DNA from: an uncultured Actinomycetes bacterium
GTDB taxonomy: Bacteria; Actinomycetota; Acidimicrobiia; Acidimicrobiales; RAAP-2
Direction of reading: 5' to 3'
DNA length: 64,000 nt
NCBI GenBank assembly: GCA_903893745.1
Contig: CAITNF010000006.1
Coordinates: 34,995-98,994 of the forward strand
The notes under the pieces are model-generated. The model had not been told where the DNA came from, made no database searches, and saw only the letters and a list, made by a program, of their open reading frames with translations. This document shows, one piece after another, positions 1 through 33,202 of this stretch. A program made the translations under genes and the position numbers. The stretch's first letter is position 1; the number at the start of each line of letters is the position of its first letter.

Positions 1-47
1 CGGTGGGTGGTGCTCACGCCCGCACACCGCGACCACCGATTCACTCG

Positions 48-1109
48 CTATCTCGAACGAGACCGCTCTCGAGAAGAACTGAGCCACTGACTCAGCTGAT
101 GATCGGCCAGGGGACGGGGGCCTCGAGTTCGCACGGCACCCACCATTCGGGCGCGTGACGTGCTCACCAGCAGTTCGCGAACTCCTTGTCCTTCAAGCAG
201 TTCGGGGTACAGCAGGTCTACTGATCTGTCTAAGTCGCGTAGCGAAGTGCCAAACACCGCCGCGTCAGCCCAGGCGGCAATGACGTGGCGACGCCCCACG
301 TCCCAGCGACCTTCGAACGCGGCGCCAAACGCGTGCTCATCTAGAAGCGCCCGGTCCCTTGTTGGCTCGTCAATGACGCCCGACGGTTCAAAGTTCGTCA
401 GATCTCTGCTCCATTGTTCAGTAATAGCGTCGCGCGTCCATGAGAACTTCTCACCACGTTCGTCGCGGTGACCCGGCCAAATCTTTCGATACCCTTCGTC
501 GAGACCGGTCACGTGTTCGACTCCAGAAAATGAACGCCAGGGCCGCCAACTCGTGGTCGCCGCAATTTGGTGACGCAGGACCGTCCGGTAGACAGCGTCA
601 CCGGTGTGCAGATGGGCAAACAACGCACGACTATCGAGCACGGTTGTGGCACCGTGCGGCCTGGAGCCCACGAGGACGTGGTCGTGTAGGTGTGGTTCGG
701 CGTGTCGATTTACCCCATGGGTAAATGCCACCACGCGTCCCCACTGGGCAGATTGTTCACTGTCGTTTCCCCCACGTCGCAGACGGACCACGACCGCTCG
801 GCCCTCGAGATACGCCAGGGCCGCGGCGACTGCGTGCTGGTGCGCGCGCACGACGTGGGGAGCCGCGACGTCGTCAACGGCCACCAGAATCGAAATAGGT
901 CGTGGGGCCGCGACGATGAGGTCGTAGCCACAGATTGTCGCTCGATCAGTCGTCGTCAGCACCCGTTTCACGTCACGTGCGTCGTGCTGATTGCCGACTC
1001 CTCGCAGCCAGCGCGCCGCCCCGGCGTCACGAACTCCCTCTAACTCCAGAGCTTCATCGTCGACCAGGTAGTCAACGGCGTCAGAACGGCGAATGATGGC
1101 GCGCAGCAT
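48..1109 (-). CDS. Stand-alone MobF/TrwC-family HUH relaxase domain protein (no helicase domain)
   Basis: N-terminal Tyr (AVDYL), GYDLIVAAPRPISIL (cf. TrwC-family GxDLTFSAPKSVS), FTHGVNRHAEPHLHDH (cf. FxHxTSRxxDPxLHxH); 353 aa, no Walker A; SD GAGGAG upstream. Confidence 0.85.
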   Translation of the reverse strand: MLRAIIRRSDAVDYLVDDEALELEGVRDAGAARWLRGVGNQHDARDVKRVLTTTDRATICGYDLIVAAPRPISILVAVDDVAAPHVVRAHQHAVAAALAYLEGRAVVVRLRRGGNDSEQSAQWGRVVAFTHGVNRHAEPHLHDHVLVGSRPHGATTVLDSRALFAHLHTGDAVYRTVLRHQIAATTSWRPWRSFSGVEHVTGLDEGYRKIWPGHRDERGEKFSWTRDAITEQWSRDLTNFEPSGVIDEPTRDRALLDEHAFGAAFEGRWDVGRRHVIAAWADAAVFGTSLRDLDRSVDLLYPELLEGQGVRELLVSTSRARMVGAVRTRGPRPLADHQLSQWLSSSRERSRSR

Positions 1110-1132
1110 GGGACTCCTCTTTCGAGGAACCC
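1110..1132 (-). promoter_or_regulatory. GAAA-tetraloop hairpin containing the relaxase Shine-Dalgarno
   Basis: Minus strand GGGTTCCTC-GAAA-GAGGAGTCC then C-ATG; 9-bp stem with two G.U pairs. Confidence 0.6.
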
Positions 1133-1142
1133 AATGGTCGCG

Positions 1143-3101
1143 TTAGAGTGCCTTGGCGATTCGTCGGGCGAGCTCGTGGCCCGCGTCGTGAAAAGTGGGG
1201 GTCAGCACCACGGCTCCCGGTCCGGCCCGCAGCATGAGGTGGTCCAAAAATGACCGTTCCGAAATGCGAAACTTCACCGCGTGGCGGCCGTCATCGAGCA
1301 CGCACCACTGGGCGTTTGGTAGTGGCTCAAAGAGCCACCGTAGTTCTGACTCCACAATGACCACTACTTCGTCGCCCGCTTCGCCAATCTCGGTCAGCCA
1401 GTTCGTTACCGTATCGGCTGGTCGAGACGTCGACGAAGGCGATTTTGCCAGAATTCCACTGATCCGATCCACTCGAAAAGTGCGCCACCCCTCGCGCATA
1501 GTGCAGTAGGCCCTCATGTAAATCCGTCCATTCAGGACTTTGATTTCGCGCGGCTCCACAATGCGCACCGAGGGTTCATTGGCACTGGCGGAGGTGTAGT
1601 TAATTTTCAGCTGTTCGTGCTGAAGAACTGCTTCGCGCACGTCAGCGAGAAAGGGTTCACTTGCGGCATTCTCCATTTGAACAAATGAGGCGACCGTTGA
1701 CTCAATCTTTTCAATGGCCGAGAAGATAGCGGGTTCGACGTAGACCCGACTGGCCTCTCGTAACGCCACGTTGAGCTCAAAGAGATCCAACCAAGTGAAC
1801 GGTGAGCTGTCGTACTCGTCACCAGTCATGCCACTGAAATCAGCACGATACGTCGAGTCATCATTCTCGACGTCGTCCCAATCGTCACATTCCTTTTGTA
1901 AGTGCGCCAAATAGCCCGACTGATTACCAATTGGCTGCAGGGCCACGAGCCGGTCCATAATCAATCGAACATGGACCGGACTAAGTGAGAAACGTTTTGC
2001 TAGTTCACTGATACGCAAACCATCGTCGGCGAGGTAGACCGCGTGCAAGAGTCGCAACGTCTCGCCGAGTACGTCGTTCGTCGCCGGACCGGAAAACCGT
2101 AGTGAATCAGCGGGAACCGTTTCACCCCGATTCACTTGGTCCAGCCACGTGAGCAGCTCTTCGCGCAGAACTTTGGGGCGGCGAATTCGAACTCGATTCG
2201 CCGCCTCGAGGGCGAATCGCATGGCGGCACGCTGGCTCGCAAAACTCAGTCCCACTTCGTACACGCCATCTTTTTTCTTCGCGGCGACCGCATTGGGGAA
2301 CTGTTGCACGATGAGCTGGGCGTAGTGGTCGTTGGTCTCGAGCACCACGTCAGTTGGCTTAGGTGACTTCGAAAACTCTGGACGCCACGCTTTGGCTAAA
2401 GCCAGCGTGGGCTCATCGACGTGAAACGAGTCGGGTAAGACCACCGGCATTGAACGCAGTCGGGAAAGTCGAAATCCACGAACTTCCGCGGTCCCCTTTA
2501 TCCGAGCCACGAGATAGGTAATTCCGTTGAAGACGTCAAGCACCAGGGGCTCAACCAGTCGTGACTTATTCGAAGACGATTGGTAGTCAAAGGTCAGAGC
2601 ACGCCGCTGGTGTAACGCTCGCAGAATTGGGATGAAGTAGTTCGTGAACTCCAGTCCCCCGTCAGCGGCCGGACCATCACTAAACACGCTAAAGGCCCCC
2701 GGACGTCCAAATCCACAGAGGGCCAGCGCCAGCTGCACCACTCGTGTTTCATCATCAGTGAAGAAGATGGCCGGGGCCGTCACACTCTGGGGATCTATCC
2801 AGTAACCCGATCCTCCATCTTCGAGAATTTCAGTCTCGATTTGAAATCCGAACTCACGAATACTGGATTTGTCTCGCTCAAACTTCTGACGAACGGCATC
2901 ATCATTGCCTTCGTAGGCGGGTACTTTTCGAGGGACGAGGGCGGTAACGGGAAACTCGTCGACCTTTAGTTCTCGAACAATACGTTCTTGGGTGAGGGGA
3001 TGTTCTCTACTCGCCGCTTGGAGCAGCAGAACGAGTGCCACTAATCGTTCGCGACGCCCTTCAGTCTCTCCTCGAATTCCGCTCGTTGCGCTTTTCGCCA
3101 T
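1143..3101 (-). CDS. pafBC: Fused PafB-PafC WYL-domain transcriptional regulator
   Basis: PafB-type wHTH (VRQKFERDKSSIREFG), WYL1 (RLVEP..TYLVA..FRLSR), second wHTH, WYL2 (RIVEP..IYMRAYC..RTFRVDRI); start set at ATG 3101 from TACCCT-N7-ATG (ORF track 3128). Confidence 0.88.
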   Translation of the reverse strand: MAKSATSGIRGETEGRRERLVALVLLLQAASREHPLTQERIVRELKVDEFPVTALVPRKVPAYEGNDDAVRQKFERDKSSIREFGFQIETEILEDGGSGYWIDPQSVTAPAIFFTDDETRVVQLALALCGFGRPGAFSVFSDGPAADGGLEFTNYFIPILRALHQRRALTFDYQSSSNKSRLVEPLVLDVFNGITYLVARIKGTAEVRGFRLSRLRSMPVVLPDSFHVDEPTLALAKAWRPEFSKSPKPTDVVLETNDHYAQLIVQQFPNAVAAKKKDGVYEVGLSFASQRAAMRFALEAANRVRIRRPKVLREELLTWLDQVNRGETVPADSLRFSGPATNDVLGETLRLLHAVYLADDGLRISELAKRFSLSPVHVRLIMDRLVALQPIGNQSGYLAHLQKECDDWDDVENDDSTYRADFSGMTGDEYDSSPFTWLDLFELNVALREASRVYVEPAIFSAIEKIESTVASFVQMENAASEPFLADVREAVLQHEQLKINYTSASANEPSVRIVEPREIKVLNGRIYMRAYCTMREGWRTFRVDRISGILAKSPSSTSRPADTVTNWLTEIGEAGDEVVVIVESELRWLFEPLPNAQWCVLDDGRHAVKFRISERSFLDHLMLRAGPGAVVLTPTFHDAGHELARRIAKAL

Positions 3102-3306
3102 ACTGATGAGGGTACCGGTCTTGGCCACCCTTGGCGCGAATCACGCGCCACCTTGGTCCGGCACCATGGTTGGGTTCCTTCGAGCATTGAAATTGCTGAA
3201 AGTGGTTTTTGCCTCAATGCGGGCTGGCCCAGTTATTGATCACTCGTCAGGCGGCTCAAGGGTCCACGGTAGGATGCAGTGGCGAGTAGTGCCGCAAGGA
3301 GTCGTA

Positions 3307-3600
3307 ATGCCAACCTACGAATACGAGTGCCAGACCTGTCAGCAGCGTACTGAGGCCGTCCAGAAATTTAGCGATCCGGCCCTAACCACGTGTGAGAGCT
3401 GTGGTGGACCACTGCGCAAGGTCTTCTCCGCGGTGGGCATTGTCTTTAAGGGAAGTGGCTTCTATAAGAACGACAGTCGCAGTACGAATTCGTCGGCAAC
3501 GCCACCCTCCAGCACGCCCAGCGCAGCCCCCGCAGCCACGCCCGCCACACCGGCGCCCAGCTCACCGGCTCCCACTGCGAGTACCGGTTCGAGCGACTAA
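3307..3600 (+). CDS. FmdB-family zinc-ribbon protein with Pro/Ala/Ser/Thr-rich tail
   Basis: MPTYEYECQTC..CESCGG..GIVFKGSGFYKND; SD AAGGAG before ATG 3307. Confidence 0.9.
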   Translation: MPTYEYECQTCQQRTEAVQKFSDPALTTCESCGGPLRKVFSAVGIVFKGSGFYKNDSRSTNSSATPPSSTPSAAPAATPATPAPSSPAPTASTGSSD

Positions 3601-4952
3601 GAGCCCGAGACCGCCACTCCATCAATCGCCAGCGACTGACCGGCCGCAGTGCCCGGTAGCCATTCAACGTTGTTGCCGACGTACACAACATCGAGGAGCA
3701 TTCGCTGCAGCGTTGACGCCACCGTAATTTCTCGAACGGGTTCGGCCAACTCACCGTCACGAATCATGAGGCCGGTAACGCCCACCGAGAAGTCTCCCGA
3801 AATGGGGTTCACGCCAGAGTGCACACCGGTGACTGATTCAACGAAGATGCCATGGCCGACGCGACGAAGCATTTCGGTCTGATCAACGTCGCCCGCAACT
3901 AACTGCAACGCCCGACACCCAGCCGACGGCGAACCGGCAATCCCGCCACGAAGGGCGCCACCATTGGACGATGTGCCAGCGCGACGAGCTGAGACCGTGT
4001 CGTAAACAAAGCCCTTCAGGTCGCCCTTCTCAATGAGTACATTTTTACGACACGCGAGACCCTCACCGTCGTACGCACTGGCCGCGAAGTGTCGCGCATC
4101 GGTGGGATCATCGAGCAGCGTAAACAGCGGCGAAGCCACCGTTTCACCAATTCGATTGGCGAAGAATGAACGACCCCGCACGACGGCTTCGCCGCTGAGG
4201 GCACTTCCGATAATGGCGAGCAGCGTGGCCGCCGTTCGAGGGTCAAAGACTGCGGTGCAGAGCATTGATGGAGGTTTCACGGCTCCGAGCATCCGGGTGG
4301 CCCGAGTGATCGCGTCGCGCGCCGCCTCGTTGATATCGAGCTCACTCGGCGCACGACCTACCGAGAGTCCCCAGCCGGTCTGATCATCTGCGCCATCGGT
4401 AGCAATCGCTTCCACGGACACGTAGGCGCCCGAGCGCGCGTACGTTGCTCGAATACCGGTCGTCGAAACGATGGCCGCCTCGGCAACGTAGTCCGAATAG
4501 TTAGCCGAATCCACTTGACGAATTCGCGAATCGCCACTTCGCACCAGCTGCTCAAGCTCAATCGCCATAGCAATTTTTTCATCCAGTGGTGTGCTCGTCA
4601 CTCTGGCGTCAGTCAGGTTAAGCGTGGCTGGGTCCACCCCATCGGGACGAGCAAAGGCGACGTACTCATCTTCGGTCGCGAAATGGGCGTTATCGCGAGC
4701 TTCGCGCAGTGCATCGCTGATTGCCTCGTCGTCGAGCGAACCAGCCCACGCGGTACCCACTTGAGCGCCCGCGGCGCTCTCACGAAGAATTCGAATACCG
4801 ATGCCACTGGACGTGGCACTTGAAAGGTTCTCAATCTGACCCTGGTAGGCGCGTACTTCGGTGTCCACTCCAGTGGAGAGATAAATCTCAACTGCCTCGG
4901 AACCCTTCGCCGCGTCGAGAATTTTTTCGGCCCGTTCGAGTAGTTCGCTCAT
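3597..4952 (-). CDS. pmbA: TldE/PmbA family protein
   Basis: 451 aa, YDGEG, GVNPISGDFSV motifs; overlaps tldD stop; lacks HExxxH. Confidence 0.88.
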   Translation of the reverse strand: MSELLERAEKILDAAKGSEAVEIYLSTGVDTEVRAYQGQIENLSSATSSGIGIRILRESAAGAQVGTAWAGSLDDEAISDALREARDNAHFATEDEYVAFARPDGVDPATLNLTDARVTSTPLDEKIAMAIELEQLVRSGDSRIRQVDSANYSDYVAEAAIVSTTGIRATYARSGAYVSVEAIATDGADDQTGWGLSVGRAPSELDINEAARDAITRATRMLGAVKPPSMLCTAVFDPRTAATLLAIIGSALSGEAVVRGRSFFANRIGETVASPLFTLLDDPTDARHFAASAYDGEGLACRKNVLIEKGDLKGFVYDTVSARRAGTSSNGGALRGGIAGSPSAGCRALQLVAGDVDQTEMLRRVGHGIFVESVTGVHSGVNPISGDFSVGVTGLMIRDGELAEPVREITVASTLQRMLLDVVYVGNNVEWLPGTAAGQSLAIDGVAVSGS

Positions 4953-6346: not shown

Positions 6347-6422
6347 GGGATAATCCTATTGGCCGTATGCGGTCCACGAAATGTGCCAAAACGACAGCAC
6401 AATCTCGTCCTACGATGCTGTA

Positions 6423-7889
6423 ATGACCGATCCCCACTCCTCAACGAGCGAACTCGCCAACAGTCCCGTCAGCTCGCTACAAGAACAGTTAGCTCAAGGC
6501 GCTACCAGTTCGATTGAGATTGTCGAAGCGCTACTCGCGCGCATTGCCGCGATTGACGTCGCCGACTCACCAATTGCCCTTCGCTCAATTGCGGCTCTCT
6601 CTGATGACGTGCGCGCCGTCGCCAACGAACGCGACAGTGAACGCGTCAACGGTGCGTTACGAGGTCCCCTGCACGGAATTCCCATTCTCATCAAAGACAA
6701 CATCGAAGCCACGGGTCTGCCCGGTGCCGCTGGTTCGAGCGCCCTGTGGGGCCGACCCGCACGCGAGGCACCGTTGGTTGCTCGCCTTCGACAAGCGGGA
6801 GCGCTAATTCTTGGTAGTACCAATCTGAGTCAGTGGGCGAACATGCGCTCAACTCGTTCGACGAGTGGTTACTCGGCAACGGGCGGGCTCGTTGGAAATC
6901 CCTGGGCGCTCGACCGCTCCGCGGGTGGTTCGTCGTCAGGTTCGGGGGCCGCGCTGGCGGCTGGGCTGGCCCCGCTCGCGATCGGCACGGAGACCGATGG
7001 ATCAATCGTCTGCCCTGCGTCACTCAATGGCGTGGTGGGATTAAAGCCCACGGTGGGACTAATCCCCACCACTTTCGTCGTACCAATTAGCGCTAGTCAA
7101 GACAGCCCCGGCCCCATGGGCCGCTCGGTCGATGACGTGGCTCTGCTCTTCGCCGCGCTGAGCAACACTGCGCGCCCCACCACTGCACCATCCCCAACCT
7201 TCGCGGTGGCGACAAATTGGCGAACCGGTCACCCCGAAACTGACGACCGTTTTGACGAAATCATGCAGGCCCTGCGTGAAGATGGTTTGATACTGCACAA
7301 TCGAGAGTTGGCCGAACCGGGCGAGCAAGAAGGAGCCGACGAGCTGCTGGTCTTAACCAGTGAGCTCTATGACGACCTCAGCGCGTACCTGCGCGAGCGT
7401 CCCGGTAGTGGCGTGGCTTCGCTCGAGGACGTTATTGCCTTCGAAGACGCCGAACGAGCTGTCGAGCAGCGCCACTTCGGTCACGAACACTTTCTTGCGG
7501 CTCGAGCTACTGGTGGTCGGGCCAGTGCGCAGTACGCCAAAGCCCGCCAGCGCAATCTCGACTGGGCCATTGAAAAATGTCTTCGACCAGGGCTCCACGA
7601 CGTTGACCTCGTGCTCGCCCCGGCCTACGGGCCAGCCTGGAAGAGCGACCTCGCCGTCGGCGGCCATCCGGGTCCGGCAAGTTGCGCGACGATGGCTCCG
7701 GCCATAGCTGGTTGGCCCATCATGAGTCTGCCAATGGGTCTCGTGCACGATCTACCCGTGGGGCTCGCACTCCTTGGTCGACCCGGAAGTGAGTGGCGGC
7801 TGCTGGCGGCCGCGCAACGAATTGAAGCCGTCACGACAGCGCGTGTACCCCTCCCACTCCCCTTTTGGGCGCAACCACAGCGTGGTTAG
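6423..7889 (+). CDS. Amidase signature family protein
   Basis: PILIKDN, GGSSSGSG, IGTETDGSI (Ser-cisSer-Lys triad motifs); start from TACGAT-N6-ATG. Confidence 0.9.
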   Translation: MTDPHSSTSELANSPVSSLQEQLAQGATSSIEIVEALLARIAAIDVADSPIALRSIAALSDDVRAVANERDSERVNGALRGPLHGIPILIKDNIEATGLPGAAGSSALWGRPAREAPLVARLRQAGALILGSTNLSQWANMRSTRSTSGYSATGGLVGNPWALDRSAGGSSSGSGAALAAGLAPLAIGTETDGSIVCPASLNGVVGLKPTVGLIPTTFVVPISASQDSPGPMGRSVDDVALLFAALSNTARPTTAPSPTFAVATNWRTGHPETDDRFDEIMQALREDGLILHNRELAEPGEQEGADELLVLTSELYDDLSAYLRERPGSGVASLEDVIAFEDAERAVEQRHFGHEHFLAARATGGRASAQYAKARQRNLDWAIEKCLRPGLHDVDLVLAPAYGPAWKSDLAVGGHPGPASCATMAPAIAGWPIMSLPMGLVHDLPVGLALLGRPGSEWRLLAAAQRIEAVTTARVPLPLPFWAQPQRG

Positions 7890-31573: not shown

Positions 31574-33202
31574 CTACCCACGACGAAGTGGCATCGCCAG
31601 CGGCGTGGCGTCGTGCAACGCTTCACGAGCGTGATAGCTCGACCGGGTCAGCGGTGACGCCTGCACGTGAGCGAGCCCCATTGCTTCACCGCGACGTGCC
31701 AACTCATCAAACTCCTGGGGCTCCCACCAACGCGCGACTGGAAGGTGCTGTTCAGTCGGGCGAAGATACTGACCAATGGTGGCGATGGACACACCTACTG
31801 ATGCCAGGTCCGCCAACGTCTCTTCAACTTCCTCGGAAGTTTCCCCGAGTCCCACCATCAGACCCGACTTCGTGGTGAATCCGGCGGCCACGCTGCGCGC
31901 CAGCACCGTGAGTGAGCGCAGGTAGCTGGCGCTCGGACGAACGGCCCGCTGCAGCCGAGCGACCGTCTCAATATTGTGGTTGATAACGTCGGGCTGCGCA
32001 TCAAAAATCATTTGCAACGAATCGCGGTTGCCCTTGAGATCACTAATTAAGACCTCCACGTTGGTTTCGGGAGATCGGGATCGGATGGCGCGTACCGTGT
32101 CGGCAATCGCCATCGCACCCCCGTCAGCTAGATCATCACGCGCCACGCACGTGATCACCGCGTGACGGAGCTTGAGTCGCACCACGGCTTCGCCAACGCG
32201 GTCCGGTTCGGTCGGATCGAGGGCCAATGGTTTACGAGTATCAATCAGACAGAACCCGCAGGCTCGAGTGCAGCGCTCGCCATTCACCATGAATGTTGCG
32301 GTGCCCGATGCCCAACATTCAAAAATGTTCGGACAGCCCGCCTCTTCACACACCGTCACCAGTCGAAGATCTTCGGTAAGCGTGCGCAACGATTGGAATT
32401 CGTTGCCCATTTTGGCTTCGATTCGCAACCACGACGGCTTTCGTGTGTGAAAGGGGATTCCACCGTCGGGATCGACGCCGGCCTTTCGCAGACGTCGCAG
32501 CAGTGGGCGCTCGCTACTGGACGATGCCAGGCTCCGATCTACCGAAGCCCTTCGCACTGGACCACCGATTCTGGCGCACAGTTCGTCACCAAGGCGCTCT
32601 TCCACGTCAAGCGCACTCACGGTGAGCCCCAACGAGTGCAAGGAACCTACTGGCCGGTCGGCAATTCCGCACGGCACAATGGCGCTAAAACCCTCTAGAT
32701 CAATATCGACGTTGAGGGCCACGCCGTGGAGGGTGCGACGAAGACCAGCCTCATTGCGCTCCGTGCGAACTCCAATCGCTGCAATCTTGGTCGGTTCTTC
32801 GTCCAGTCGAGCCCACACTCCGGGGTAGCCCTCGAGTCGCCCCACTCGACCCAAACGGCCATCGGGATCAAAATACTGCACTGTCGCAATCACCGAATCT
32901 TCTAATTGGGCGACGTGCGTCTTGCCGGCCGAGGGATCGTCAGCGACCGTGACAATTGGCCACGCCACTACTTGACCGGGCGCGTGATAGGTGACGTCGC
33001 CGCCGCGGTCGGCGTCGATAACGACCGCGTCCAGCGATGAAGGGGGTACGAGAAAATGCTCATCGACGGTGCGCACCCCGCGTGTGTAGGTCGGCGGATG
33101 CTCCAGGAGAAGCACGTAGTTATCTCTCGACTCCACTAGGGCTCGCTGGAAGTCATTCGCTTCAGCGAAACTGACTCGACCCAAGTGTCGGCGACGGATC
33201 AT
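31574..33202 (-). CDS. lipBA: Fused octanoyltransferase LipB - lipoyl synthase LipA
   Basis: LipB: EHPPTYT, DRGGDVTYH, KIAAIG, IVPCGI; LipA: CEEAGCPNIFEC, CTRACGFC, RSSY. Confidence 0.92.
   Translation of the reverse strand: MIRRRHLGRVSFAEANDFQRALVESRDNYVLLLEHPPTYTRGVRTVDEHFLVPPSSLDAVVIDADRGGDVTYHAPGQVVAWPIVTVADDPSAGKTHVAQLEDSVIATVQYFDPDGRLGRVGRLEGYPGVWARLDEEPTKIAAIGVRTERNEAGLRRTLHGVALNVDIDLEGFSAIVPCGIADRPVGSLHSLGLTVSALDVEERLGDELCARIGGPVRRASVDRSLASSSSERPLLRRLRKAGVDPDGGIPFHTRKPSWLRIEAKMGNEFQSLRTLTEDLRLVTVCEEAGCPNIFECWASGTATFMVNGERCTRACGFCLIDTRKPLALDPTEPDRVGEAVVRLKLRHAVITCVARDDLADGGAMAIADTVRAIRSRSPETNVEVLISDLKGNRDSLQMIFDAQPDVINHNIETVARLQRAVRPSASYLRSLTVLARSVAAGFTTKSGLMVGLGETSEEVEETLADLASVGVSIATIGQYLRPTEQHLPVARWWEPQEFDELARRGEAMGLAHVQASPLTRSSYHAREALHDATPLAMPLRRG

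Follow-up and report, generated by a model that had tools for sequence, protein, structure and literature searches.

What is a gene for a conjugation-type relaxase doing directly behind the gene of a PafBC-like regulator, in the housekeeping surroundings of a lake-water member of the Acidimicrobiales? The question is raised by a stretch of 64,000 nucleotides from an uncultured bacterium of this order (assembly GCA_903893745.1, contig CAITNF010000006.1, positions 34,995 to 98,994), hereafter called the window, which means the whole 64 kb stretch and which is housekeeping throughout. Relaxases and type IV coupling proteins (T4CPs) are usually treated as hallmarks of mobile elements, and in genome mining they are taken to indicate plasmids or integrative and conjugative elements (ICEs). 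A first-pass annotation, made from the letters alone, had described the regulator and the relaxase as apparently one operon and as a possible module of damage response, defence or mobilisation. It described the pair only and missed a third gene, encoding a T4CP-like ATPase, as well as a translational-control hairpin and the vertical inheritance of the locus. Taking all of these together we lean, with somewhat better than even confidence, towards the view that the trio is a relaxosome-like module which the host owns, has domesticated and inherits vertically, transcribed together with a PafBC-type sensor of single-stranded DNA (ssDNA) behind which its translation is gated.

The protein encoded behind the regulator carries a TrwC domain (Pfam, E 4e-24, residues 21-186, 86 bits against a cut-off of 25), and its sequence match in the PDB is TrwC (E 9e-8). 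In its AlphaFold2 model (pTM 0.76, pLDDT 69), the same family is recovered, the top 24 Foldseek matches in the PDB all being TrwC/TraI relaxase domains (probability 1.0, TM 0.47/0.56). The HUH fold, the three-histidine metal site and the N-terminal tyrosine are all present, with Y14, H131, H142 and H144 invariant and D63 kept in at least 90% of the aligned sequences. HUH relaxases cleave ssDNA at a specific site and hold the end covalently. The name relaxase, given in the first pass, is sound for this TrwC-type domain but has to be narrowed: the protein is a single trans-esterase domain without helicase, and the nearest NCBIfam model, MobF, gives 78.8 bits, below its cut-off of 100, while the TraI models stay far under theirs. 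Moreover, this clade does not have the second catalytic tyrosine (Y2 type), which in MOBF enzymes serves to terminate strand transfer. Residue 19 of the query aligns to residue 42 of TrwC, and about 23 residues including the Y26 region are missing; distant forms of 450-500 aa retain the loop, yet have only one YY pair.

The gene in front encodes a protein with two WYL domains (Pfam, E 8e-33), whose best matches in the PDB are the PafBC of Arthrobacter, a natural fusion (6SJ9, E 5e-16, residues 73-585), and then the PafC and PafB chains of 7P5X. Its architecture is that of PafBC, a tandem of winged helix-turn-helix (wHTH), WYL and WCX domains found as heterodimer or fusion, and the FERDK signature is present. 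The WCX and second HTH regions are weak in the window protein and clear in the orthologue of the distant locus L087 (HTH_PafC 88.7 bits and two WCX domains; Pfam), HTH_PafC and WCX lying above the Pfam threshold in the distant, more typical orthologues. In Mycobacterium smegmatis, ssDNA activates PafBC through arginine pairs of the WYL domains, R211/R214 of PafB and R201/R204 of PafC, residues required for ssDNA binding (PMC11804915). The regulator of the window carries R211/R214 (FRLSR) and R542/R545 (FRVDR), both pairs, like the FERDK signature, being invariant in 72 orthologues. With the structural matches, the invariant arginine pairs and HTH_PafC in distant orthologues, its placement in the PafBC family is borne out. 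Association with the pafA/Pup-proteasome locus has served as an identity check for PafBC (PMC6789036), and in this respect the mycobacterial pattern cited in the first pass, PafBC usually beside pafA/tat genes, does not carry over: pafA and the proteasome genes are absent from the window and from ±10 kb around the loci of relatives, and in neither place is there a pafA/tat adjacency.

The third gene enters the window only with its 3' end. The frame-1 translation of window positions 1-90, RWVVLTPAHRDHRFTRYLERDRSREELSH*, matches the C-terminus of the T4CP-like protein of L001, the reference for identity comparisons among the loci, labelled L001-L168. On a contig with an identical relaxase, the gene standing here encodes a 430 aa T4SS-DNA_transf/TraG-D_C protein. 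T4CPs are translocases that ssDNA stimulates. The orthologues examined score 72.3 bits for T4SS-DNA_transf (cut-off 20.1), 54.5 for TraG-D_C and 21.6 for TrwB_AAD_bind (Pfam); an FtsK/TrwB-like nucleotide-binding domain is present, and its Walker A (GPSRSGKT) and Walker B (LLALDE) motifs are invariant in 22 orthologues. The membrane anchor of T4CPs is missing. Indeed, no membrane helix was found in the three proteins examined, in which Walker A starts at residues 13-72 and the highest 19-residue hydropathy, 1.4-1.5, falls inside the nucleotide-binding domain. Within ±10 kb of the related loci, described below, there is no VirB4-like or other channel gene, hence no partner type IV secretion system (T4SS) at the locus, and no integrase gene.

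Is such a locus a passenger or a property of the host? A scan of one genome per species returned 172 species with a relative, of which the best 80, all metagenome-assembled genomes (MAGs) of Acidimicrobiales, were analyzed; together with five other loci they make up the 85 related loci. In all of them, wherever the contig reaches, the WYL-WYL gene stands 25-34 nt upstream of the relaxase gene and the T4CP-like gene converges on it from downstream, between constant housekeeping flanks, made up of dxs, tldD/pmbA and a zinc-ribbon gene at one end and of cofC, rnhB and opp at the opposite end. Complete Acidimicrobiales genomes with the trio include OY970351.1, OY969907.1 and OY970152.1. Distant relatives, whose relaxase of 405-481 aa is only 30-45% identical, have the same trio in the same synteny. 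The pair, for which the first-pass annotation had made conservation in relatives the test, is thus kept across the Acidimicrobiales, far beyond chance. An exhaustive profile search revealed that stand-alone relaxase domains of this short kind (350-500 aa) make up a wider family. Over 80 metagenome loci, short relaxase open reading frames (ORFs) had a WYL gene upstream in 43 of 47 cases and a T4CP-like gene downstream in 39 of 51, against 2 of 7 and 2 of 9 for the long, helicase-bearing relaxases; around the long relatives (1039-1196 aa), both neighbours are mostly absent.

The trio has also diverged at the pace of its surroundings, identity to L001 tracking that of the neighbouring PmbA (r 0.86-0.95), with mean identities of 79% for the T4CP-like protein, 74% for the WYL protein, 65% for the TrwC-type relaxase and 77% for PmbA. 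No relative of the window relaxase was found on 72,556 plasmids, and no member of its family in the IMG/VR viral contigs; a 459 aa form that looks ancestral shares 27-35% identity with MobF relaxases of plasmids. A resident mobile element was considered and rejected, given the lack of plasmid or viral relatives, the fixed synteny and the co-divergence with housekeeping genes: this housekeeping, syntenic and co-diverging context is not that of a MOBF system, that is, a plasmid or ICE with an oriT/nic site and a mating channel. Since synteny is order-wide, divergence shared and plasmid or viral relatives absent, the trio is, as judged from sequence comparison, inherited vertically under purifying selection in the Acidimicrobiales chromosome.

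How the genes are tied to each other can be read from their layout (Table 1). The first-pass coordinates, a regulator stop at 1143 and a relaxase start at 1109 on the same strand with 33 nt between them, agree with the ORFs and the sequence, the TAA stop occupying 1145-1143 of the minus strand; a GTG at 3128 is an alternative start of the regulator, which would then have 661 aa. The absence of a recognisable promoter in the gap was likewise borne out, a consensus scan of positions 1-3700 giving no sigma-70-like promoter anywhere and no terminator between the two genes. As a spacer of 25-34 nt leaves no space for a promoter, and the 33 nt of the window none for a terminator either, a single operon is the likely arrangement in this clade, and the regulator and the relaxase are probably co-transcribed. 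The operon claimed in the first pass is nevertheless not universal, because some distant lineages have long, AT-rich spacers with TAnnnT boxes. At its other end, the relaxase gene overlaps the T4CP-like gene by 43-67 nt in 81 of the 85 loci; in the distant L086 and L087 there is no overlap and the tails differ. Convergent relaxase and T4CP-like transcripts would give double-stranded RNA over this overlap (window 48-90; L001-L085).

Table 1. Coordinates of the trio and its control elements in the window (position 1 is the first nucleotide of the window)
Feature	Positions	Strand	Details
3' end of the T4CP-like ATPase gene	1..90	plus	last 29 codons and stop; remainder left of the window
Tail-to-tail overlap of the relaxase and T4CP-like genes	48..90		43 nt; low-complexity DNA; Arg/Ser/Glu-rich C-terminal tails encoded on both strands
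Gene for stand-alone MOBF/TrwC-type HUH relaxase	48..1109	minus	353 aa; ATG 1109-1107, stop 50-48
Hairpin	1109..1133	minus	TGGGTTCCTC-GAAA-GAGGAG.TCCCA; base-pairs with the Shine-Dalgarno GAGGAG (1119-1114); extends to the A of the relaxase start
Spacer between regulator and relaxase genes	1142-1110	minus	33 nt; reads cgcgaccattgggttcctcgaaagaggagtccc
Conserved 11-mer	1130..1140	minus	CGACCATTGGG; consensus CGACCGTTGGG; begins 2 nt past the regulator stop
Gene for fused PafB-PafC-like regulator, (wHTH-WYL-WCX) x2	1143..3101	minus	652 aa; ATG 3101 chosen by the gene caller
Conserved putative promoter core of the regulator gene	3109..3118	minus	CCGGTACCCT; -10-like TACCCT at 3114-3109, 7 nt before ATG 3101

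The spacer, in which the first pass saw no recognisable promoter, is not empty: no other stretch of the locus is so well conserved. In the related loci the stop codon is followed by (G)CGACCGTTGGG, and in 70 of 85 the exact consensus occurs here and once per locus, the others being 1-2 nt off. In the window the 11-mer occurs once and its one-mismatch matches are not enriched (4 against 3.8 expected); neither there nor in the related loci was a second copy found that could mark an excisable segment. Downstream, and partly within the 11-mer, lies a hairpin with a minimum free energy of -15.0 kcal/mol in the window and a mean of -12.4 over 55 species, against -5.9 +/- 2.5 for shuffled sequences. 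These statistics come from per-sequence folds anchored on the 11-mer. RNAalifold on a plain MAFFT alignment of the spacer returned no structure, because differences in loop length shift the register, and no larger structure appeared in a wider -120/+80 alignment; nor did Rfam (L001 9900-13000, E <= 1) give anything credible for the spacer or for the region upstream of the T4CP-like gene.

Several features of the hairpin point to selection as RNA. Its arms change in a compensatory manner (CACCTC/GAGGTG, CCCC/GGGG, CCTC/GAGG, GTACCTCC/GGAGGTGC), stem position 5 being C-G in 29 sequences and A-T in 23, and position 8 T-A in 14 and C-G in 12. In 44 of 53 sequences, at least three of the four bases of the Shine-Dalgarno tetramer are paired, and in 45 of 55 only 0-1 nt lie between the end of the stem and the start codon. 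The sense strand gives the more stable hairpin in 43 of 55 species and the antisense strand in 10 (Wilcoxon p 2e-7), with 46 G.U pairs on the mRNA-sense strand versus 4 on the opposite one. From folding energy, covariation, burial of the Shine-Dalgarno sequence and sense-strand bias, we infer that the hairpin is an RNA structure which would block translation of the relaxase until opened. Its 5' arm starts 10 nt past the regulator stop codon, a distance within reach of a terminating ribosome, so that translational coupling to the regulator would be the simplest mechanism. A GACCGTT core and a hairpin also occur in distant lineages (L087, L107, L112 and others), where the hairpin does not cover the Shine-Dalgarno sequence; in L087 and L107 it has arms of 5 bp and a loop of 4 nt, with no such overlap.

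Upstream of the regulator gene, the motif CC[GA][CG]TAC[CT]CT is present in 77 of 77 distinct regions, with no conserved -35 or -26 element. In the window and about ten other species the ATG follows the hexamer at 7-8 nt, a distance that fits a leaderless transcript and hence supports TACCCT as the -10 box of a probably leaderless or near-leaderless mRNA.

On these grounds, we propose that the regulator and relaxase genes would form one transcription unit, started from the conserved -10-like box upstream of the regulator gene. Terminating ribosomes, or a factor binding the invariant 11-mer, would open the hairpin that hides the relaxase Shine-Dalgarno sequence and start, and relaxase output would be tied to regulator output and held below it. 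The T4CP-like protein would be a soluble ring ATPase and the partner of the relaxase, and the trio, in its composition TrwA/TrwB/TrwC-like, would process single-stranded chromosomal DNA under stress signalled by ssDNA, rather than serve the transfer of a mobile element. The proposal of a domesticated relaxosome draws on a common denominator, PafBC being switched by ssDNA, the relaxase cutting it and the T4CP being stimulated by it. The trio might take part in damage response, DNA export or defence.

Several observations weigh against this proposal. The regulator stands outside the pafA/proteasome locus in the window and in relatives. PafBC acts through RecA-NDp promoters (-26 element TGTCGGTG, 8 nt, TAnnnT) and, on binding ssDNA, activates the DNA-damage regulon. 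No consistent RecA-NDp-like -26 element was found upstream of the regulator operon or of the T4CP-like gene, the regulator's own putative promoter having a conserved TAnnnT box and no conserved element further upstream. For these two reasons the WYL-WYL protein may act only locally, or may not be an activator. Simple translational coupling leaves the invariant 11-mer unexplained, and in other distant lineages the spacer is 55-190 nt long, AT-rich and provided with TAnnnT boxes, which suggests a separate relaxase promoter there. Some short relaxase and WYL pairs have no T4CP-like gene nearby, and the T4CP-like protein gave no sequence match in the PDB and only a poor AlphaFold2 model (pLDDT 57), too weak for a fold search. 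To our knowledge, no chromosomal target of the nickase has been described. Lastly, among sequencing runs the locus is found in 16 DNA runs, as contigs only, and in 0 RNA runs.

The same parts can also be assembled differently. If the 11-mer and hairpin were a nic site, the locus would be a working chromosomal origin of transfer (oriT), and the T4CP-like protein would pass the strand to a channel encoded elsewhere, for an Hfr-like (high frequency of recombination) or gonococcal-like export or transfer of ssDNA under WYL control. The gene set does mirror the Dtr (DNA transfer and replication) module of plasmid R388, with its oriT, accessory/regulator, T4CP and relaxase genes, and the catalytic residues of the relaxase are intact. 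At the TrwC nic site, loop and distal arm are free whereas the proximal arm and 9 nt are fixed (PMC4176350); the antisense strand of the spacer has this layout, a hairpin followed by CCCAACGGTCG, with about 9 invariant nt on its 3' side. In L087 and L107, moreover, the hairpin lies off the Shine-Dalgarno sequence and is hence kept for another reason. We nonetheless regard a working oriT as unlikely: the hairpin is stabler on the mRNA-sense strand and its excess of G.U pairs, 46 versus 4, would be A.C mismatches on the nicked strand; the T4CP-like protein has neither a membrane anchor nor a VirB4 or channel gene within ±10 kb; and the relaxase is devoid of helicase and second tyrosine, with no second copy of the site. 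A further scheme, which we also hold to be improbable, would make the trio a generator of ssDNA signals: the relaxase would nick the 11-mer/hairpin site, in its own operon or close to it, the soluble T4CP-like motor would strip the strand, and the resulting ssDNA would switch on the PafBC-like activator, either as a conjugation-derived positive-feedback amplifier of the LexA-independent damage response or as an Hfr-like chromosomal oriT that would make the whole chromosome transferable.

Genes derived from mobile-element machinery under a WYL regulator also call to mind anti-plasmid or anti-phage defence, in which the regulator would sense foreign or damage-derived ssDNA and the relaxase and T4CP-like protein would act as decoys or effectors, nicking or trapping conjugative or rolling-circle DNA. 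WYL regulators often adjoin defence systems and sense ssDNA (PMC9122601, PMC11662680), and the regulator of the window does match PADLOC models, but these are generic CRISPR-associated WYL models, and the relaxase and T4CP-like protein match none. No defence genes were seen nearby, and the trio occupies one syntenic place, which is not a variable island, and co-diverges with housekeeping genes, unlike patchy defence systems; we consider a defence role very unlikely. Finally, there may be no functional coupling, the WYL-WYL protein being simply the PafBC of this lineage and the other two genes a fixed remnant of an ancient integrated element in a frozen gene order. As the whole neighbourhood is syntenic (moaC, zinc-ribbon, cofC and the Lys/Ala-rich protein gene), adjacency alone is indeed weak proof, and an apparent separate relaxase promoter in some lineages would fit such a remnant. 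A remnant should decay, yet conservation of the T4CP-like protein equals that of PmbA, the housekeeping protease (79% versus 77%), and the catalytic motifs are invariant. Within the locus, furthermore, conservation is highest in the spacer, which also shows compensatory changes, and the WYL/T4CP association is specific to the short form of the relaxase. A mere remnant therefore has, in our view, very little probability, and we retain the domesticated relaxosome-like module as our preferred reading.

Some further observations concern the elements of the locus and their surroundings. The long-spacer lineages (L086, L091, L097, L111, L113, L118, L119, L129-L131, L134, L139, L152, L156-L159, L164, L167 and L168) carry repeated (C)ATGAAA or TGAAA words, then a cGGTAnnnT-like box; their AT-rich spacer is possibly an internal, regulated relaxase promoter in place of the 11-mer and hairpin. 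The T4CP-like gene has no Shine-Dalgarno sequence; in front of its ATG/TTG start stand a T-run and (A)CGACCG, for example in L016 and L050. This CGACCG resembles that of the relaxase-proximal 11-mer, and in some species there is a palindrome, CGACCGATGGTCG. CGACCG[AT]TGG before the T4CP-like gene was entertained as a shared regulatory motif and rejected: [AT]TG is the gene's own start codon, which leaves only a GC-rich 6-7-mer in common and makes the likeness weak. Further upstream, about 290 nt separate the start of the T4CP-like gene from the next gene in about 70 loci (L001 12334-12619, left of the window). Although the genome is GC-rich, this stretch is rich in AT, and it hardly varies between species; it contains covarying hairpins and, on the plus strand, a perfect TTGACA. 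Its consensus fold reaches -43.8 kcal/mol on the plus strand versus -23.3, with 7 compensatory pairs and no Rfam match, so that a long structured 5' leader or a small RNA may be encoded here.

The gene that diverges from the T4CP-like gene encodes 82-139 aa of Lys/Ala/Pro repeats (AKKAPAKKAAAKK...), like histone H1 or a HupB tail (L001 12620-12898 on the plus strand, L002 12616-12969, L086 11418-11834, L087 11278-11676). The protein has no Pfam match, and distant lineages too have its gene in this position; the module may thus have a fourth member, or the gene may merely belong to the frozen synteny. On the other side, the window differs from most related loci in two respects: it lacks their moaC between the zinc-ribbon and WYL-WYL genes (3102-3310), and between tldD and dxs it carries an amidase gene (6381-7889) in place of the NfeD/Band_7 or SIMPL genes found elsewhere. 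Small local rearrangements have thus taken place around a trio that is otherwise fixed. Farther away, at 31574-33202 on the minus strand, an ORF of 542 aa combines LplA-B_cat (lipoate-protein ligase B-type) and radical-SAM domains and looks like a LipB-LipA fusion.

What usually betrays a mobile element is thus here a set of core host genes in a widespread environmental order, found in Acidimicrobiales of lake, peat and soil, and TrwC and T4CP matches in MAGs of this order should not be scored as mobile elements. If the link between the genes is functional, the trio would represent a rare exaptation of the DNA-processing half of conjugation and would point to an output of WYL/PafBC signalling, or an input to it, that is new. 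Its compact HUH enzyme of one domain, for which the 11-mer is a candidate recognition sequence, would also be the kind of protein used in covalent DNA tagging. In a full-text literature search, no paper mentioned PafBC together with a relaxase, and the trio is not described in those that deal with Acidimicrobiia and relaxases. The parts are known; their combination and their ownership by the host are new.

Set against the PafBC of Mycobacterium and Arthrobacter (6SJ9, 7P5X), the regulator shares the tandem wHTH-WYL-WCX arrangement, fused as in Arthrobacter, the FERDK signature and both arginine pairs (PMC6789036, PMC11804915), and departs from it by a weak match to 6SJ9 (E 5e-16), its place off the pafA/proteasome locus, the absence of a RecA-NDp box at its own promoter and the co-encoded relaxase. 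Local WYL regulators such as SiwR, DriD, BrxR and CapW resemble it in placing a WYL ligand sensor directly beside the genes that they probably control. Those regulators are homodimers with a single wHTH-WYL-WCX unit, encoded beside genes of repair or defence, whereas here a fused, hetero-type pair adjoins conjugation-derived genes. The chromosomal relaxase and VirD4 of Helicobacter pylori and the TraI/TraD DNA-secretion island of Neisseria gonorrhoeae likewise are chromosomal and act, or may act, on chromosomal DNA (PMC8894178, PMC6736028); these belong to islands gained by horizontal transfer, with a full T4SS and relaxases of other MOB families, in contrast to the order-wide vertical inheritance seen here, with no island and no T4SS nearby. 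The closest parallel to the whole remains the Dtr module of R388 (oriT, TrwA, TrwB and TrwC). The trio differs from it in its vertical inheritance at a syntenic place of the chromosome, where genes for a T4SS, an integrase or replication are absent from the vicinity, in a relaxase without helicase and, in this clade, without the second-tyrosine loop, in a T4CP without anchor, in a PafBC-type WYL regulator where R388 has a ribbon-helix-helix protein, and in a hairpin that looks RNA-selected. It has in common with R388 the relaxase fold and active site, an adjoining ATPase of the VirD4/TrwB family, a DNA-binding regulator in front and, beside the relaxase gene, a short hairpin with a conserved run of nucleotides.

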